DNA of 64,000 nucleotides, taken from Candidatus Saccharimonadales bacterium. Lineage in GTDB: Bacteria > Patescibacteriota > Saccharimonadia > Saccharimonadales > 2-12-FULL-41-12. Where the stretch lies: assembly GCA_025451045.1 (NCBI GenBank), contig JANWLD010000001.1, positions 273,965 to 337,964 of the forward strand, written 5' to 3'. This document shows, in pieces, positions 3,595 through 61,339 of the stretch. Each line of letters begins with the position of its first letter. Positions within the stretch are counted from its first letter, which is position 1. The notes beneath the pieces are model-generated. The model worked only from the letters and a program-made list of their open reading frames with translations. It was not told the DNA's origin and searched no databases. A program made the position numbers and the translations under genes.

Positions 3595-4395
3595 ATGAAA
3601 AAACCGAAGAAGATTTTGATTATCGGGAACTGGAAAATGAACCTGAATGTTTCGCAGGCCAGCCTGTTGGTTTCTCGCCTGGATAAACATATCAAAACCC
3701 GCAAGGGGATTGAAGTCGTGCTTGCTCCCAGTATGCTGGACTTACAACCGGTAAGCATGCAGGTAGACCGCCGCAAATTCCGCTTAGCGGCTCAAAATGC
3801 CTATCACCACGACGAAGGGGCTTTTACCGGCGAAGTTTCGTTCACCATGCTTCGTGAACTTGCGCATTATGTTATAATCGGCCATTCCGAACGCAGAATA
3901 TATTTTAAAGAAGACTTGGACGAAATCCGCGACAAAGTTTCAGCTTGCATGCGCAACGGCATCACGCCGATCCTATGCATAGGCGAAACCAAGACCGAAC
4001 GCCGGGCTGGAGAAACCCGGCAGGTGTTGCATGACCAGTTAATGACTGCCTTGAGCAATCTGACAGCCGAGGAAGTATCAGAAATGGTGATTGCCTATGA
4101 ACCAGTCTGGGCGATAAGTACATTCGAGGGCGATATCGCCAAACCTGACGAAATCGGTAAAGACTTAACTTTCATCAGAGATCAGGTTAAAGAACTCTAC
4201 GGCGTACAAACCGAGGAAAAGGTCAGAATAATTTATGGCGGTAGCGTCGATGACCATTCAGCCCGGGCGTATCTTGAAATACCCGGTTGCGAAGGCGTAT
4301 TGGTCGGTGGAGCCAGCATAAATTATCATAAGTTCGCCGGTATCGCCGAAGCGGCTTATAGGGTGGTAAAAGAAAATGCCGAAGAAAAAGAATAA
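3595..4395 (+). CDS. tpiA: triosephosphate isomerase
   Basis: IIGNWKMN, IIGHSERR, and the AYEPVWAI and GGSV motifs are all present. Confidence 0.92.
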   Translation: MKKPKKILIIGNWKMNLNVSQASLLVSRLDKHIKTRKGIEVVLAPSMLDLQPVSMQVDRRKFRLAAQNAYHHDEGAFTGEVSFTMLRELAHYVIIGHSERRIYFKEDLDEIRDKVSACMRNGITPILCIGETKTERRAGETRQVLHDQLMTALSNLTAEEVSEMVIAYEPVWAISTFEGDIAKPDEIGKDLTFIRDQVKELYGVQTEEKVRIIYGGSVDDHSARAYLEIPGCEGVLVGGASINYHKFAGIAEAAYRVVKENAEEKE

Positions 4396-5029
4396 CGATA
4401 CAACCGACGGACTAGAGCCGGAAGCAGAAGAAGTAAAAACTGCTCCGAAAATAAAAGACGTAGCCAATCCGGGGGAGACTCCGCCGTCGGCTACGGCTCG
4501 CCCAATTATTACCGGCCATGGTTCGATACTTAAACAAGACCCGATGATGGCTGACAAATCCGAACCTGATGAAAAAATAACTACCAAAAAAGCCGAACTT
4601 ACGATAAAGCCTGAGACCGAATCCGAACCTGAATCTACCGAAACATCGGAGGAATCACCCAAAGGCGAAAATAAAGACGAGCCGCCTGAGGCAAATGAAG
4701 CCGAAAAAGGCGAAACTAAAAATGATGAAGACAGCACCGGTTCCGACAGCGCGGCTATAGATTCATTGGCGACTTCGGCGGGAAACAAAAAGCAGGATGC
4801 GAAGCAAGCGGAAGAAGAACGAAAAAAAACTGAAAAAATAAATGAACTCATTGCCAGCAAAAGATATTCCATCCCGATAACCGAAGGCGGCCATAAAGCA
4901 TCTAGCCAGCGTTTCATGAGCTGGTTACTATTGATATTGTTGGCATCAGCAGTCGGCGTTTATCTGGCAATAGACGCTGGTTATCTGGACATTGGCATCG
5001 CTTTGCCTTTCGATCTGATAAAAAACTAA
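4376..5029 (+). CDS. hypothetical acidic low-complexity protein with a C-terminal transmembrane anchor
   Basis: The ORF overlaps the tpiA stop by 20 nt. It is Glu/Lys/Thr-rich and ends with the hydrophobic helix LLLILLASAVGVYLAI. It has no recognisable domain. Confidence 0.45.
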   Translation: MPKKKNNDTTDGLEPEAEEVKTAPKIKDVANPGETPPSATARPIITGHGSILKQDPMMADKSEPDEKITTKKAELTIKPETESEPESTETSEESPKGENKDEPPEANEAEKGETKNDEDSTGSDSAAIDSLATSAGNKKQDAKQAEEERKKTEKINELIASKRYSIPITEGGHKASSQRFMSWLLLILLASAVGVYLAIDAGYLDIGIALPFDLIKN

Positions 5030-5056
5030 TAAGTTTCGGTTTGCTAAGATGTATAG

Positions 5057-7180
5057 GTGAAAGACTTATTTGAGGACCTGAATCCGGAGCAAAAACGGGC
5101 GGTTGAAACTACCGAAGGGCCGCTTTTAATCCAAGCTGGAGCTGGCAGCGGCAAGACCAAGACGCTGACGCACCGGATTGCTTATATTGTCAGTTCGGGT
5201 CTAGCCGCGCCCTATCAAATTCTGGCGGTAACATTTACCAACAAAGCGGCGAAAGAAATGCGCATCAGATTGGCCAAACTAGTCGGTCATGATGCAGACG
5301 ACCGGACGTTCCTGCCATTCATGGGCACCTTTCACGGCATCTGCGTAAAGATTCTCAGGATCGACGGAGATTTTGTTAAAGTTCCCAAAAACTTCGTGAT
5401 TTTTGATGAAGCCGACAGACTGGCGACAGTAAAACAAGTTAGCAAAGACCTCAAGATTGATGAAAAAAGCTTCCCGCCTCGCTTGATTGCCAGCCTTATC
5501 AGCAGCGCCAAAAACGAACTTATCCGTCCGGCCGAATATAGCAATCTAGCTTCCAGCCCGGTTCAAAAAACTGCCTCCCAAATTTTTCCGCTTTATGAAA
5601 AAGCCCTGAAAACCGCCGGAGCACTGGACTTTGACGATTTGATAGGCAAAGCCGTTGAACTGATGGCCAATCATGAAGATGTCCGACGCCGTTGGCAGGA
5701 AAGATTTAAATACGTGCTTATCGACGAATACCAAGACACTAATTCCGCCCAGTACAAGCTAGTCAAATTTCTAGTTAACAAAAAACAGAACATTGCAGTG
5801 GTTGGCGATGACTGGCAAAGTATTTATTCGTGGCGGGGAGCTGATTTTAAAAACATACTTAATTTTGAAAAAGATTATAAAAACGTCACGGTCATCAAAC
5901 TGGAACAAAATTATCGCAGTACCAAGCATATCCTGGACGCCGCGCACAAAATAATTGCCAAGAATACCCAGCGTTCTGATAAGAAATTATGGACGGCAAC
6001 CGATAGCGGCCTGCCGGTACAGGTAGTGCCGGTAGCCAATGAGCGGGCGGAGGCCGAAACTATCATTCGCCGGATTGAGACCGGTATAAATCTTGGCTCG
6101 CGCGGTTATGACGATTTCGCGGTGCTGTATCGGACCAACGCTCAAAGCCGGGCGATTGAGGACATGTTTATCCGCTACGGCGTGCCTTACAAAATTATCG
6201 GCGGGGTTAGGTTTTATGACCGCAAGGAAATCCGTGATGTAGTAGCTTACCTGCGTTTAATTTTTCAGCCCGAAGACAGAACCAGTTTCGAACGCATCGT
6301 CAACGTACCGGTCCGCGGCATAGGCGATAAGTCGCTTAGCAACCTTTTCGCGTGGCAAGCCAAAAATAATTTTAGTTTGGAACAAGCACTAACTAAAATC
6401 GAAGAGTGCGACGAACTAACGCCGAAAGCCAAGAAAGCCTTATTTGGCTTCAATGCGATACTCAAAGATTTGCGCGCCATCATTGACGAAACTAATCCGG
6501 CTGGACTTATCGATTCGCTGTTGCGTCGGATTGAATACCTTGAATATTTAAACGACGGCACCATACAAGCTGAAGCTCGGATAGAAAACGTCAACGAACT
6601 TTTGAGTGTCGCCCGGGTTTATCAGGATGTTGGTCTGCAGGATTTTCTGGAGGAAGTTTCGCTGGCATCCGATGCCGAAAGCGGAAACCAAAGTAGCTCT
6701 TCGGTGACATTGATGACCCTGCATTCCGCCAAAGGCTTAGAGTTTCCGGTAGTCTTTATGGTCGGTATGGAGGAAACTATTCTGCCGCATACCCGCTCCA
6801 GTTTTGACCAAAAAGACATGGAAGAAGAACGGCGGCTGTGCTATGTCGGCATGACCCGGGCCAAAGAAGAACTTTATATGATTTACGCCGGTTCGCGCGT
6901 ACTATACGGCGGCGTCCAACATAACGTCCCATCGCGGTTCTTAAGCGAAATCGACAGCCAGCTGGCCCACGCGGGTGCCGGCGACAGCTTAACCGCCCGG
7001 CCGCCTTTATCAGATGAACCGAGATATGTAGCGGAGCTTAACCCCGGCGACAAAGTTCGCCACCAAGTATTCGGCGTAGGGACGGTAGTTCAGATAGAAG
7101 AGGAAGAAGCCGTGATAGATTTCAAGACCAAAGGTTCTAAGAAGCTCAATCTGGCATTCGCCCCGATAGAGAAGATGTAA
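5057..7180 (+). CDS. pcrA: ATP-dependent DNA helicase PcrA/UvrD family
   Basis: The gene has a GTG start. Walker A reads AGAGSGKTKTL, and the DEYQDTN, VGDDWQSIY and QNYRST motifs follow. The C-terminal domain includes the Tudor-like tail. Confidence 0.88.
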   Translation: MKDLFEDLNPEQKRAVETTEGPLLIQAGAGSGKTKTLTHRIAYIVSSGLAAPYQILAVTFTNKAAKEMRIRLAKLVGHDADDRTFLPFMGTFHGICVKILRIDGDFVKVPKNFVIFDEADRLATVKQVSKDLKIDEKSFPPRLIASLISSAKNELIRPAEYSNLASSPVQKTASQIFPLYEKALKTAGALDFDDLIGKAVELMANHEDVRRRWQERFKYVLIDEYQDTNSAQYKLVKFLVNKKQNIAVVGDDWQSIYSWRGADFKNILNFEKDYKNVTVIKLEQNYRSTKHILDAAHKIIAKNTQRSDKKLWTATDSGLPVQVVPVANERAEAETIIRRIETGINLGSRGYDDFAVLYRTNAQSRAIEDMFIRYGVPYKIIGGVRFYDRKEIRDVVAYLRLIFQPEDRTSFERIVNVPVRGIGDKSLSNLFAWQAKNNFSLEQALTKIEECDELTPKAKKALFGFNAILKDLRAIIDETNPAGLIDSLLRRIEYLEYLNDGTIQAEARIENVNELLSVARVYQDVGLQDFLEEVSLASDAESGNQSSSSVTLMTLHSAKGLEFPVVFMVGMEETILPHTRSSFDQKDMEEERRLCYVGMTRAKEELYMIYAGSRVLYGGVQHNVPSRFLSEIDSQLAHAGAGDSLTARPPLSDEPRYVAELNPGDKVRHQVFGVGTVVQIEEEEAVIDFKTKGSKKLNLAFAPIEKM

Positions 7181-16769: not shown

Positions 16770-16841
16770 CTGCCTCGGAGATTAGCTTCCCGGCCACTTG
16801 GCCGGGAAGGTCTCAAAAGCTCACTACCGGGCAAGCATGAG
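16770..16841. repeat. 72-bp inverted repeat, left copy. It is the reverse complement of 18194..18265, with 71/72 identities.
   Basis: Directly compared in the sequence. It contains a perfect 10-bp GC-rich hairpin CTTCCCGGCC-ACTT-GGCCGGGAAG. Confidence 0.9.
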
Positions 16842-16849
16842 CGGGAAGC

Positions 16850-16881
16850 AAAAAAGCTTTAGGATTAACTCAAGCTTTTTT
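16850..16881. terminator. bidirectional hairpin terminator (AAAAAAGCTT...AAGCTTTTTT) downstream of the prepilin gene
   Basis: A 10-bp perfect stem with a 12-nt loop is flanked by A and T runs. Confidence 0.5.
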
Positions 16882-16913
16882 GGTAAAGCTGGCGGGTAAA
16901 TACTCCCAAGCCC
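16879..16913 (-). repeat. degenerate copy of the tmRNA 3' end (T-arm plus acceptor-CCA-like segment)
   Basis: In the minus sense it reads GGGCTTGGGAGTATTTACCCGCCAGCTTTACCAAAA. This aligns at about 29/35 positions with the ssrA 3' end GGACGTGGGAGAATTACCCACCAGCTCCACCAAAA at 17735..17701. Confidence 0.6.
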
Positions 16914-16945
16914 TATGGATTTATGCGGCTTATTAAGCTTACGAT

Positions 16946-17626
16946 TTAGCGATACGCAATTGTGGCTATGAGCAACTCGACTGTTTTAGTAGCAGATTGA
17001 CCATTATCAGAATCTAATACACCATAACCGTTACTTGCGGCGAAATATATGTCCGAAGCATTCTGCCAATATGCCTCAAAGTTGGCATTATCGTTCCAAT
17101 TATAGGTACGTACGGCTAAACCGTCTTTTGTAGTAAGGCTGCCATCTTCTACAGTTCCGCTTTCCAAAGGACTTGTATTTGGCTGACCTTTTTTGGTAGC
17201 TGACTCAACGATACTTCCCAAATTACCCATCGATTTTCCATAATTGATTCCGATTATTTGTAAATCCGCCGGCATGTTAGTGACAGGACCGTCCAGGTAA
17301 TCACCAGGAGTTTTAGTAGTCGAAATGGTGATATGGCCACTGCTATTGATCAACTTATCTTCGGTGACGTACCAACCGGACGGATATTTAAAACTTATGT
17401 AGCCCGTATCGGGATTTTTTGAAGAATAAGTTTGCCAACCAGCATATTTATCCTCGGATGCTTCAGTTTTGGTTGAGGTTGAAGATTGTATGGATGAGTT
17501 CGAGATACTATTGTTTTTATTCTGTGTTTTATATACATAGAATATAACTCCGGCTATCATCAGAACGATTATTAAAATAAGTATAGCCTCAATAGCAGAA
17601 AAACCTTTAGAGTTTAGTTTTTTCAT
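16946..17626 (-). CDS. type IV prepilin (class III signal peptide) with a Ser/Thr-rich linker and a globular C-terminal domain
   Basis: The N-terminus reads MKKLNSKG^FSAIEAILILIIVLMIAGVIFYV. It carries the canonical G-F...E(+5) prepilin peptidase site. An AAGGA ribosome-binding site is present. Confidence 0.75.
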   Translation of the reverse strand: MKKLNSKGFSAIEAILILIIVLMIAGVIFYVYKTQNKNNSISNSSIQSSTSTKTEASEDKYAGWQTYSSKNPDTGYISFKYPSGWYVTEDKLINSSGHITISTTKTPGDYLDGPVTNMPADLQIIGINYGKSMGNLGSIVESATKKGQPNTSPLESGTVEDGSLTTKDGLAVRTYNWNDNANFEAYWQNASDIYFAASNGYGVLDSDNGQSATKTVELLIATIAYR

Positions 17627-17662
17627 AAATAATCCTTATGTTTAAATACTTAAGCTAATAAT

Positions 17663-17689
17663 AAAAAAACTCTTGTAATAATACAAGAG
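17663..17689 (-). terminator. rho-independent terminator of ssrA (CTCTTGTA-TTAT-TACAAGAG followed by TTTTTTT in the minus sense)
   Basis: An 8-bp perfect stem followed by a 7-T run lies 12 nt after the tmRNA CCA end. Confidence 0.7.
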
Positions 17690-17700
17690 TTAAAGAATTT

Positions 17701-18074
17701 TGGTGGAGCTGGTGGGTAATTCTCCCACGTCCATCAGTTTACGTCGTTGGTCGTCTACAAGCTTAGGCTATTTAGTTACGTCCTGAGATAAAAATAACCA
17801 AAAAATCAGGCCGGTTGACCCAAAGTCTTAGCGCATCTTACGGGTCGGTAAGTTGCGAGCGTTCAGAAAATATGACGCCAACTGAAAATATCTGAAGTCA
17901 ATTCAGTGGCGAACTTCGTTCTTAGGCGAAGTTGAATGCTAGCTTAGGCGCGAACGCATCAGCTAAGCGGTTTAGAAATGTTTTTGCATTTACTAAAAGT
18001 TTCCCTATGACGCTGAGAAGCGGCTTGCGGAATCCAACTTGTAAAGGTCCGATGTCGAGCTAAAATACAGCCCC
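17701..18074 (-). ncRNA. ssrA: tmRNA (transfer-messenger RNA)
   Basis: In the minus sense the 5' end reads GGGGCTGTATTTTAGCTCGACATCGG, which carries the canonical GGGGCUG acceptor strand and UCGAC element. The 3' end reads GGACGTGGGAGAATTACCCACCAGCTCCACCA, with a T-arm-like hairpin and CAGCUCC-A-CCA pairing the 5' end. Its 374-nt length fits. An internal tag-like reading frame ends ...AFAPKLAFNFA-TAA. Confidence 0.75.
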
Positions 18075-18193
18075 TCATGTAACTTCAAATTTTGAAGTAA
18101 CTTGAGCGGATGAAAATCTGGGTTGTTAAAGAGGGGGTGAGGCTCCCGATTACTCTGTGATTATAGCATAAAAACAATCGGATTACAATACCT

Positions 18194-18265
18194 CTCATGC
18201 TTGCCCGGTAGTGAGCTTTTGAGACCTTCTCGGCCAAGTGGCCGGGAAGCTAATCTCCGAGGCAG
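18194..18265. repeat. 72-bp inverted repeat, right copy. It is the reverse complement of 16770..16841.
   Basis: There is one mismatch in 72 nt. In the sense of the downstream + strand gene, that mismatch converts a C-G pair of the 10-bp hairpin into a U-G wobble. Confidence 0.9.
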
Positions 18266-18851: not shown

Positions 18852-19895
18852 ATGTCAGACAAAAAACCTTCGTTGGTTAAAATTTATGCAATCTCAACCC
18901 TGATATCGGTTGCCTTGATTGCTTTCGTTGGCGTCAAGGCGGGCTTGTCAGCACTGATTATAGTATTGGTTTTGGTGGCTCTTGAAATAACCTTCAGCGT
19001 TGACAATGCTGTTGTTAACACTCGAATACTTCAGAAAATGAGTCCGGGTTGGCAGCAGGCTTTTTTGACGGTCGGTATCTTCATAGCCGTTTTCATAGTA
19101 AGGGTGCTTCTGCCTATATATATAGTCGTGTGGGCTTCTGGATTATCGTTCCACACAGTTACTGATTTGGCGCTGAACCACCCGGAAGAATACGGCCACA
19201 TGCTTGAAGAAGCACATCCGGTCATTGCCAGCTTCGGCGGCGTGTTCCTGCTGATGATTTTTCTTGATTTCTTTTTTGAGCGCCGCCGGACCAAATGGCT
19301 GGTCAAGATTGAAACACTACTGCAAAACGCTGGCAAATTGGAAAGCCTGAGCGTGATAATAGCGCTGGGCGTTATTTTGGGTATGGCAAACCTTGTCGGC
19401 GGACATGAACAGCAGGTTATTCTAACCAGCGGCGCAATCGGGCTGTTGACTTATCTGGTTATCAATTCGTTAGACACACTGCTTGAAAAAACCAGAAAAA
19501 GCGGCGGCGTCAGCTCGGTAGCTAAAACCGGATTCAAGGCCGGGTTAATCGGCTTTTTGTACCTGAATGTAGTCGATGCCAGCTTTAGCTTGGACGGCGT
19601 CATCGGTGCTTTCGCCATAACCAACCAGATATTATTGATAGCCGTTGGTCTGGGCATCGGCGCGCTGTACGTGCGGGTGCTGACCCTGCATATGTTGCGC
19701 CACGGCGTGCTGGAACAGTATAAATACATGGAACATGGCGCCCACTACGCTATCGGTATTTTGGCGTTTATCATGCTACTTTCACTCAGGTTTGAAATCT
19801 CTGAATTCGTGGCCGGACTTGCCGGGGTAATTTTCATAATCACAGCCGTTGGCCAGTCATATCTTGAGTCTAAACGGCAGGGGAACCCGGCATGA
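18852..19895 (+). CDS. DUF475 family integral membrane protein
   Basis: LEITFSVDNAVVN...MSPGWQQAFLTVGIF and a second half DASFSLDGVIGAFAIT match the two-repeat DUF475/COG2899 pattern. Multiple TM helices are predicted. Confidence 0.6.
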   Translation: MSDKKPSLVKIYAISTLISVALIAFVGVKAGLSALIIVLVLVALEITFSVDNAVVNTRILQKMSPGWQQAFLTVGIFIAVFIVRVLLPIYIVVWASGLSFHTVTDLALNHPEEYGHMLEEAHPVIASFGGVFLLMIFLDFFFERRRTKWLVKIETLLQNAGKLESLSVIIALGVILGMANLVGGHEQQVILTSGAIGLLTYLVINSLDTLLEKTRKSGGVSSVAKTGFKAGLIGFLYLNVVDASFSLDGVIGAFAITNQILLIAVGLGIGALYVRVLTLHMLRHGVLEQYKYMEHGAHYAIGILAFIMLLSLRFEISEFVAGLAGVIFIITAVGQSYLESKRQGNPA

Positions 19896-60862: not shown

Positions 60863-60910
60863 GTTTGCTATTATACACTAAATTTATAAGTTATGCAAAA
60901 ACGTTACAAG

Positions 60911-61010
60911 TGGTGGGGATGGGGACAGCGCTCCGGCTATTCACGCGGAGCTAACCTTCCCGTTCCCCGCCAGCTGGCGAGTCTCTCATTGAAGGTTCAA
61001 GACACTCAGC
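60911..61010. repeat. tRNA-Leu-derived structured element 'a'
   Basis: It starts with the inverse of the tRNA-Leu(CAG) 3' end (TGGTGGGGATG). It contains a T-arm-like GAAGGTTCAAG and a conserved core GGACAGCGCTCCGGCT...AGCTAACCT shared with element b. Confidence 0.5.
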
Positions 61011-61037
61011 CAAAACAAAAACTGGTACAAGACCAGT
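61011..61037 (-). terminator. rho-independent terminator after tRNA-Leu(CAG) (ACTGGT-CTTGT-ACCAGT followed by TTTTTGTTTTG in the minus sense)
   Basis: A 6-bp perfect stem is followed by a T-run. Confidence 0.55.
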
Positions 61038-61046
61038 CCATGTTTT

Positions 61047-61132
61047 GGTGGGGATGAAAGGACTTGAACCTTCACGAGCCGAAGCTCACTAGCTCCTGAA
61101 GCTAGCGCGTCTACCAATTCCGCCACATCCCC
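61047..61132 (-). tRNA. tRNA-Leu (anticodon CAG)
   Basis: The reverse complement GGGGATGTGGCGGAATTGGTAGACGCGCTAGCTTCAGGAGCTAGTGAGCTTCGGCTCGTGAAGGTTCAAGTCCTTTCATCCCCACCA folds as a cloverleaf. It has a long variable arm, an anticodon loop TTCAGGA, and an encoded CCA. Confidence 0.85.
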
Positions 61133-61142
61133 GTATTTTTAA

Positions 61143-61230
61143 TTGGTGGGCGAGAGGACAGCGCTTCGGCTGTCGCGCCAAGCTAACCTGCCTGGAGGTT
61201 CAAATCTGTCTCCCCGCAATTACGAAACCC
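61143..61230. repeat. tRNA-Leu-derived structured element 'b'. It is homologous to element a.
   Basis: It starts TGGTGGGCGAGAGG, the inverse of the tRNA-Leu(GAG) 3' end. The core GGACAGCGCTTCGGCT...AGCTAACCT...GGTTCAAAT is shared with element a. The stem GCTTCG/AAGC here covaries with GCTCCG/CGGAGC in a. Confidence 0.5.
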
Positions 61231-61252
61231 CTCCAAAGAGAGATTTAGCAAT

Positions 61253-61339
61253 TGGTGGGCGAGAGAGGACTTGAACCTCCACAGGATTGCTCCCATTGGC
61301 CCCTCAAGCCAACGCGTCTACCAATTCCGCCACTCGCCC
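61253..61339 (-). tRNA. tRNA-Leu (anticodon GAG)
   Basis: The reverse complement GGGCGAGTGGCGGAATTGGTAGACGCGTTGGCTTGAGGGGCCAATGGGAGCAATCCTGTGGAGGTTCAAGTCCTCTCTCGCCCACCA folds as a cloverleaf with a long variable arm and an encoded CCA. Confidence 0.85.

Follow-up and report, generated by a model that had tools for sequence, protein, structure and literature searches.

In the 64,000-nt stretch of the Candidatus Saccharimonadales bacterium genome analysed here (the window; assembly GCA_025451045.1, contig JANWLD010000001.1, positions 273,965-337,964 of the forward strand), the gene for transfer-messenger RNA (tmRNA), ssrA, is followed by a gene for a pilin-like surface protein and then by a second, degenerate copy of the ssrA 3' end. 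Sequence comparison makes it very probable that the segment between the two 3' ends is an insertion and that the copy is the ancestral end of ssrA, displaced from its original place. We propose that a low-GC segment of 787 bp with one gene and a new terminator was inserted at the 3' end of ssrA, and that the old T-arm, acceptor strand, CCA, terminator and flank thereby came to lie about 0.8 kb further downstream. The insertion could have taken place when a small circular DNA with a look-alike of the ssrA 3' end recombined with ssrA, in or near its T-loop, by a single cross-over of the Campbell type, the recombinase acting in trans or having been lost since; the unit was probably gene-sized already on arrival. 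In a separate, later event, an inverted copy of 75 nt of the native downstream flank would have been placed immediately in front of the ssrA promoter. To this statement as a whole, comprising insertion, route and later inverted copy, we assign a probability of roughly 0.55. Site-specific recombination as the route, a mechanism that we infer, is tentative and taken by itself falls somewhat short of even odds; a tyrosine integrase as its agent is a matter of inference only. The locus is a familiar kind of integration scar that is unusual in its one-gene length and in that no recombinase was found. Little is documented on how the tiny, mobile-element-poor genomes of Saccharibacteria and other members of the candidate phyla radiation (CPR) gain genes for surface proteins, which are probably important for attachment to the host. 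The locus would be a clean, dated example, in which one surface-protein gene was added at a classical hot-spot and the ancestral gene end was kept as a fossil.

For comparison, relatives were retrieved from Saccharimonadales/Saccharibacteria genomes and metagenome contigs with the conserved DUF475/TerC-like protein encoded at 18852-19895 as query, which yielded 17 related loci in which ssrA divergently adjoins the DUF475 gene (individual loci and contigs are given as L numbers). The closest relative species is L002 with 85% identity in DUF475, and no closer relatives came from the metagenome scan.

The earlier note, made from the letters of the window alone, had placed a tmRNA gene on the minus strand from 18074 to 17701, and the covariance model Rfam RF00023 matches there with 57.3 bits against a gathering score of 47, the model being covered in full (1-374). 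The gene has the tRNA-like domain, with the acceptor stem GGGGCUG/CAGCUCC-ACCA, a G3.U70 pair, an encoded CCA and the T-stem GUGGG/CCCAC. A tag reading frame (17987 to 17922) opens with the resume codon GCA (Ala) and encodes the 21-aa tag AKTFLNRLADAFAPKLAFNFA up to a stop codon. As translated by eye, the tags of L002 and L066 also begin with AK, and that of L066 additionally ends in ..AFAPK..FA, like the tag of the window. ARAGORN made no tmRNA call at this gene. The program also misses all 18 Saccharibacteria tmRNA genes that Rfam detects with 48-93 bits in the sequences searched (the window and L001-L016, L054 and L064-L066), so that its silence is uninformative on the ssrA of the window; its blind spot for Saccharibacteria tmRNA appears to be systematic. 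The terminator that had been noticed directly after ssrA is real, consisting of a 10-bp stem and a T-run. Its sequence is unrelated to the terminator GCATCAG...CTGGTGC(T)n that L001, L002, L003 and L064 have in common directly after CCACCAAAA.

The displaced copy of the 3' end reads GGGCTTGGGAGTATTTACCCGCCAGCTTTACCAAAA from 16913 to 16878. Formal global alignment gives 30 matches to the true ssrA end across the 36 nt of the copy, close to the 29 or so of 35 claimed before. This similarity is far above chance: the local score of the copy is 35, while 3000 shuffles of the downstream region gave a mean of 15.6 and a maximum of 26, the best score to the ssrA 3' end across both strands of the remaining window was 21, and the regions downstream of ssrA in the 17 related loci scored 14-24. 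The longest exact blocks shared by the two 3' ends are short (the segments ACCAAAA, TGGGAG and TTACCC). The locus has the arrangement left by elements that target tRNA or tmRNA (t(m)RNA) genes, namely a target gene, here ssrA, that is intact and whose 3' end recurs as a direct repeat at the far boundary. An extension of the duplicate to about 85 nt (CTAAAT..TAAGCTT) was marginal, with p = 0.03 against the ssrA of the window and 0.29 against that of L002, and is not claimed.

The orthologous site in the relatives shows which of the two ends stands in the native surroundings. Window positions 16831-16907, which hold the copy, the terminator behind it and 17 nt of flank, align with 78% identity to positions 5455-5529 of L002, where that species has its genuine ssrA 3' end with terminator and flank. 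The hairpin terminator that had been seen after the duplicate is also real, and it stands in the same register as the ssrA terminators of L001, L002 and L064; its sequence has changed, its fold has been kept. At the same distance behind the terminator, the flank of the window has its counterparts in TTCCTGCTCATGCTTGC of L002 and TTTCTGCTCATGCTTGG of the small contig L062, the motif GCTTTTTT..TTCC(C/T)GCTCATGCTTGC and the register being common to all three. None of the 17 related loci has a gene between ssrA and the terminator or a copy of the 3' end; ssrA is followed by one terminator in each of them. The site is thus empty in the relatives, and in the window the native flank resumes past the repeat. 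Since copy, terminator and flank are orthologous to the native ssrA 3' region of the relatives, the copy is very likely a displaced ancestral gene end, and the unrelated sequence of the live ssrA terminator supports the copy side as the ancestral one and the 787 nt in between as the insertion. No other 787-nt stretch of the 64 kb is as low in GC as this segment with its 36.7% (mean of the stretches 45.8%, standard deviation 2.7). The suggestion that the segment between the true and the duplicate end was inserted is therefore borne out by the alignment to L002, by the 17 relatives without a gene there and by the GC content, and all coordinates given for the locus in the earlier note were correct within a few bases (Table 1). 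The expected form of an allele with an empty site is ssrA joined directly to AAGCTTGAG...GCTCATGCTTGC. It is consistent with the arrangement in the window that the ancestral ssrA terminator now ends the inserted gene.

Table 1 Features at the ssrA locus, in window coordinates.
Feature	Position	Strand	Basis and remarks
ORFan, 142 aa	16259-16687	minus	faces outward from the left arm; self match only; no Pfam, PHROG or NCBIfam match
Inverted repeat, left arm, 75 nt	16770-16844	minus	begins in the ancestral flank, 4 nt past the terminator
Ancestral flank TTCCCGCTCATGCTTGC	16831-16847	minus	last sequence common with relatives; all diverge beyond
Putative ancestral ssrA terminator	16849-16881	minus	hairpin of 11+2 bp and T-run; begins right after ...CCAAAA
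Displaced ssrA 3' end, 36 nt (T-arm, acceptor 3' strand, CCA, AAAA)	16878-16913	minus	alignment to the true end
Probable inserted segment, 787 nt	16914-17700	minus	new ssrA terminator, short 5' region, one gene; bounded by true and displaced 3' ends
Cargo gene, 226 aa	16946-17626	minus	open reading frame; pilin-type leader, Ser/Thr-rich linker, predicted PsbP-fold domain
Terminator now serving ssrA	17661-17691	minus	hairpin prediction; 10-bp stem (17691 to 17668) and T-run
ssrA (tmRNA), intact, single tmRNA gene	17701-18074	minus	Rfam RF00023
ssrA promoter	18160-18188	minus	consensus scan, 10/12 matches; TTGTAA, 17-nt spacer, TG-TATAAT (extended -10)
Inverted repeat, right arm, 75 nt	18191-18265	plus	ends 2 nt upstream of the ssrA -35 element
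ORFan, 176 aa	18277-18807	plus	faces outward from the right arm, between ssrA promoter and DUF475 gene; self match only

In the T-stem the copy has CCCGC as in the relatives, and the live ssrA has the compensated pair GTGGG/CCCAC. GGAC and CTCCACCA do not vary among the 14 related working tmRNAs listed; in the copy these segments have become GGGC and CTTTACCA, and the T-stem of the copy carries a U.C mismatch. Altogether 6-7 changes in 36 nt (~19% divergence) separate the copy from the ssrA end; they are mostly C-to-T and include residues invariant in working tmRNAs, in agreement with the old event that had been assumed. The predominance of C-to-T changes, the broken invariant residues and the mismatch in the T-stem indicate that the displaced end has no function and is apparently decaying neutrally by C-to-T changes.

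The wider frame KsgA-MarR...ssrA-DUF475-MetRS-TatD is common to the window and more distant relatives. Because the window nowhere contains the downstream genes of L001 and L002, we considered a breakpoint behind ssrA and rejected it: the distant relatives show that the window keeps the ancestral frame, and so does L013, in which an ABC ATPase follows directly behind ssrA, as it would in the window minus its strain-specific genes. That gene of L013 (4246-4896) was assigned by tblastn; by eye, the first gene behind ssrA is GIY-YIG-like in L066 (1-300), glycosyltransferase-like in L001 (3880-4620) and PadR-like in L002 (5033-5410). Since it differs in nearly every relative, the 3' flank of ssrA appears from these gene orders to be a general hot-spot of gene turnover in the Saccharibacteria clade. 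In a further metagenome relative, L065, a LOOT RNA (RF03000, 83.5 bits) lies at 4099-4212, about 280 nt downstream of ssrA.

The single gene of the insert, in the following referred to as the cargo gene, had been described as a prepilin gene. The leader agrees with this description: in MKKLNSKG|FSAIEAILILIIVLMIAGVIFYV, Gly at -1, Phe at +1 and Glu at +5 (KG|FSAIE) are followed by a hydrophobic helix, as in class III signal sequences. The identity as a pilin was not upheld. Curated pilin models were not reached (ComGE/ComGF with E ~0.015 and 15 bits against cut-offs of 49-80), and there was no N_methyl match. The protein gave a PsbP_2 match of 25.4 bits, below the cut-off of 27. Its AlphaFold2 model (pLDDT 82) has a helix at residues 9-36, low confidence at 39-51 within the stretch rich in Ser and Thr, and then an alpha/beta domain; Foldseek matches the modelled domain to PsbP/CyanoP (probability 1.0, E ~1e-4), which agrees with the sub-threshold PsbP_2 match. 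The model does not show the alpha-1 helix packed on a beta-sheet head of the pilin fold, and a PsbP-type fold is predicted instead. In modular type IV pilins such as Streptococcus sanguinis PilB (PMC8179133) and in pilins of the Saccharibacteria type IV pili (PMC11623550), a class III leader and a hydrophobic helix are likewise followed by an unrelated domain. The cargo protein differs from them in the disordered linker between the helix and the PsbP-fold domain, in having no pilin head domain and in matching no curated pilin model. "Pilin-like surface protein" is a safe name for the product, which is predicted to be secreted or anchored. The cargo family is large, with 1184 representatives at E<=1e-3. 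The motif G-F-x-x-x-E is missing in some of its full-length members, and other members (P0004, P0005) are found in tandem arrays without a t(m)RNA link.

A second pilin-like gene lies at the edge of the window, where a pilin fragment behind tRNA-Glu and its terminator had been pointed out before. It runs from 127 to 1 on the minus strand and off the window, its start being about 75 nt behind tRNA-Glu (203-277) and past the tRNA-Glu terminator. The ribosome-binding-site motif AACATAAGGAT is common to the tRNA-Glu-linked and the ssrA-linked gene. Both pilin-like genes of the window are situated directly behind a t(m)RNA gene in the same orientation, which we count in favour of the proposed integration at ssrA.

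Among the 5.8 billion proteins searched, the cargo protein has one close homolog, P0002 with 71% identity, encoded on the 1.8-kb contig L062. This contig opens with an ssrA terminator and flank of the L002 type, behind which lie two small open reading frames (ORFs). The homolog follows, with its ATG at 1023 and its stop at 1697, and after it comes, in convergent orientation, the 3' end of a gene for an EamA transporter. A direct repeat flanks the homolog on both sides, at 913-954 and 1741-1782; its copies are 79% identical, with a local score of 44, the maximum of shuffled sequences being 28. One copy of this repeat belongs to the intact EamA end (..LGIYYAEIRKPKRWWPA and stop), the other a displaced fragment with a stop codon of its own (..SGIYSAEIRKPSTLT and stop). 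The repeat period is 828 nt in L062 and 822 nt in the window, and homology between the two modules is confined to the gene, stop codon included, and about 35 nt in front of its ATG. In E. coli, e14 and phage 21 integrate into the protein gene icd and replace its 3' end. These resemble the EamA case of L062, but they are full prophages with their own integrases. An ssrA-like 10-mer behind the L062 gene, GGAGCATTAC, fell within the null distribution and was dropped, and a flanking repeat around a more distant homolog in L073 was not significant (p = 0.08). Position 1 of L062, a Logan contig, is the exact junction of the ssrA 3' end and its terminator. Speculatively, repetition or variation of the ssrA 3' end in the sample would make an assembly graph end a contig there.

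With respect to the route of insertion, integrative elements that target t(m)RNA genes regenerate the target gene by a Campbell-type single cross-over. The copy in the window seems to be chimeric, its 3' half-stem CCCGC being that of the relatives and its 5' half-stem TTGGG sharing a T with the live GTGGG. By our own count, a cross-over in the T-loop would require 5 changes, and 7 would be needed otherwise; this stem pattern gives a weak hint at a cross-over in the T-loop.

Several observations speak against the explanation proposed here. Neither the insert nor the neighbouring ORFs yielded an integrase, recombinase or transposase, nor did any of the 26 ORFs of the 64-kb window that were scanned with Pfam; the scan included all neighbours and all ORFs of unknown function, the other ORFs being judged as housekeeping by eye only. 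This agrees with the earlier statement that no integrase remains, and the integrase by which t(m)RNA-targeting elements are recognized is lacking from an insert that consists of one non-recombinase gene. Homologs of the cargo gene were found neither in phage nor in plasmid nor in IMG/VR collections. The two repeats are about 80% identical and not identical, so no cross-over core can be defined, and either the live or the displaced 3' end may derive from the incoming DNA. In L062 the cargo gene is oriented oppositely relative to the target, which is a protein gene. Because targets and orientations differ, one recombinase specificity cannot explain both cases. Finally, the module was seen twice only, and L062 comprises just 1.8 kb.

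Known integration systems resemble the locus in part. In the ssrA islands of Dehalococcoides, ssrA forms one border and a direct repeat of its 3' end the other. Their insertion point is placed in the T-loop, and like the insert in the window they interrupt synteny and are low in GC (PMC3146451). In contrast, these islands are between several kb and tens of kb in length, have a serine recombinase module beside attL and show a conserved 20-bp repeat (PMC3146451), whereas the insert in the window measures 0.79 kb and has one gene, no recombinase and a 36-nt copy that is about 80% identical. Cis-mobilizable elements (CIMEs) are also bounded by the target end and its displaced copy and encode no integrase (PMC5704250). 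However, they keep recombination-proficient att sites and are defined via a known family of integrative and conjugative or integrative and mobilizable elements (ICE/IME), while in the window the distal site has decayed and there is no known partner element.

A recombinase-independent insertion after DNA uptake is a serious rival to site-specific recombination, although we regard it as unlikely. Type IV pili and machinery of the competence type occur in Saccharibacteria, and bacteria that are naturally transformable are documented to undergo homology-facilitated illegitimate recombination. A donor fragment from a relative, with the cargo gene already beside ssrA or EamA, would have provided a homology anchor, and the recipient's gene end would have been duplicated, either through a RecA-dependent single cross-over of a circularised fragment or through homology-facilitated illegitimate recombination. 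Such an event would fit the gene-sized unit, the recombinase that was not found and the two target genes in opposite orientations, and the repeats would have been imperfect from the start since the alleles of donor and recipient differ. Nevertheless, RecA would have to act on a very short anchor of 35-85 nt, DNA of the recipient is mostly deleted and seldom duplicated in illegitimate joining, and the arrangement required of the donor, ssrA followed directly by the cargo gene with no duplicate, occurs in none of the 17 loci.

About equally unlikely, in our estimation, is the origin from a large integrase-bearing island or prophage in ssrA, of which deletions left one gene and the distal repeat as a CIME-like relic. 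For t(m)RNA genes such an outcome is the classical one. By definition, CIMEs have lost the integration genes and kept the att sites (PMC5704250), ssrA islands in tandem with repeats of the 3' end have been described (PMC3146451), and the region behind ssrA is hypervariable in the relatives, with its PadR-like, glycosyltransferase, GIY-YIG and ABC genes. But the gene, its ribosome-binding-site region and the terminator take up the 787 nt and leave no room for pseudogene debris, and the L062 homolog is bracketed at nearly the same period by the repeats of another gene (828 against 822 nt); two independent decays down to the size of a gene are unlikely. The decayed element favoured by the earlier note is thus less likely. 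As the gene almost fills the insert and the two bracketed cases have a similar period, the unit was, from what the sequences suggest, probably gene-sized on arrival.

Very improbable is a similarity by chance, which the copy statistics and the orthology of the flank exclude, or a functional copy serving as an alternative tmRNA end or a tRNA-like tail of the mRNA: the C-to-T changes would still allow G.U pairing with the 5' GGGG, and copy and terminator fold modestly well (z = -2.4), but the invariant GGAC and CTCCACCA are broken, the T-stem has the U.C mismatch and there is no 5' partner strand nearby.

A much broader scheme can be drawn up from these cases, and we regard it as rather improbable. 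Gene-sized, recombinase-less cassettes of Saccharibacteria or the CPR would replace the ends of ssrA, EamA and perhaps tRNA-Glu, each insertion regenerating the 3' end of the target and displacing the old one; inverted repeats would make the block of ssrA and cargo gene invertible or mobile, and the copies behind two tRNA-Leu genes described below would be further traces. The parallel in L062 hints at a mechanism that could move single genes without a recombinase of their own. If this were true, it would offer a handle on gene flux; otherwise the locus is an ordinary integration scar.

A 75-nt inverted repeat, not remarked in the earlier note, brackets the whole unit from the ssrA promoter to the ancestral terminator. 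Its arms are 97% complementary, and each contains a GC-rich hairpin of 10 bp. The initial ~12 nt of each arm are ancestral flank sequence, which is why we regard the left arm as original and the right arm as an inverted copy of it. With a divergence of about 3% between the arms, against about 19% for the ssrA copy, the inverted copying would be later than the insertion proposed here. Recombination between the arms would invert the block without damage; inverted repeats flank it as they do an invertible segment, but the Pfam scan showed no invertase nearby. Further copies of the inverted repeat were found neither in the window nor in the related loci L001-L061 nor in IMG/VR, and an Rfam scan at E<=10 assigned it to no family. 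Two strain-specific ORFans face outward from the arms. They have no homologs among the 5.8 billion proteins and no similarity to each other, and that of 176 aa is absent in L002, where the ssrA 5' end sits 82 nt from the DUF475 start.

Between the ssrA promoter of the window and the mature 5' end there is a leader of about 85 nt. The motif TTATGCTATAAT upstream of ssrA is conserved in L001, L002 and L066. L001 has a leader of ~330 nt between promoter and ssrA, and its tmRNA match (4684-5253) is 570 nt in length and exceeds the others by about 170 nt, which seem to lie in the 3' pseudoknot region.

On the minus strand at 60905-61252, copies of acceptor 3' strands with CCA were also observed behind tRNA-Leu(cag) (61046-61132) and tRNA-Leu(gag) (61253-61339). 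About 95-125 nt downstream of these genes lie exact copies of their own acceptor sequences, CTCTCGCCCACCA (13 nt) and CATCCCCACCA (11 nt). No Rfam or ARAGORN call covers the two elements of about 110 nt behind the tRNA-Leu genes, which fold with z = -2.0 and -4.7. They are homologous to each other (31 nt at 81%), and each contains an inverted copy of the T-arm of its own tRNA. Two related elements could have left them as scars, or they could represent a tRNA-linked RNA element.

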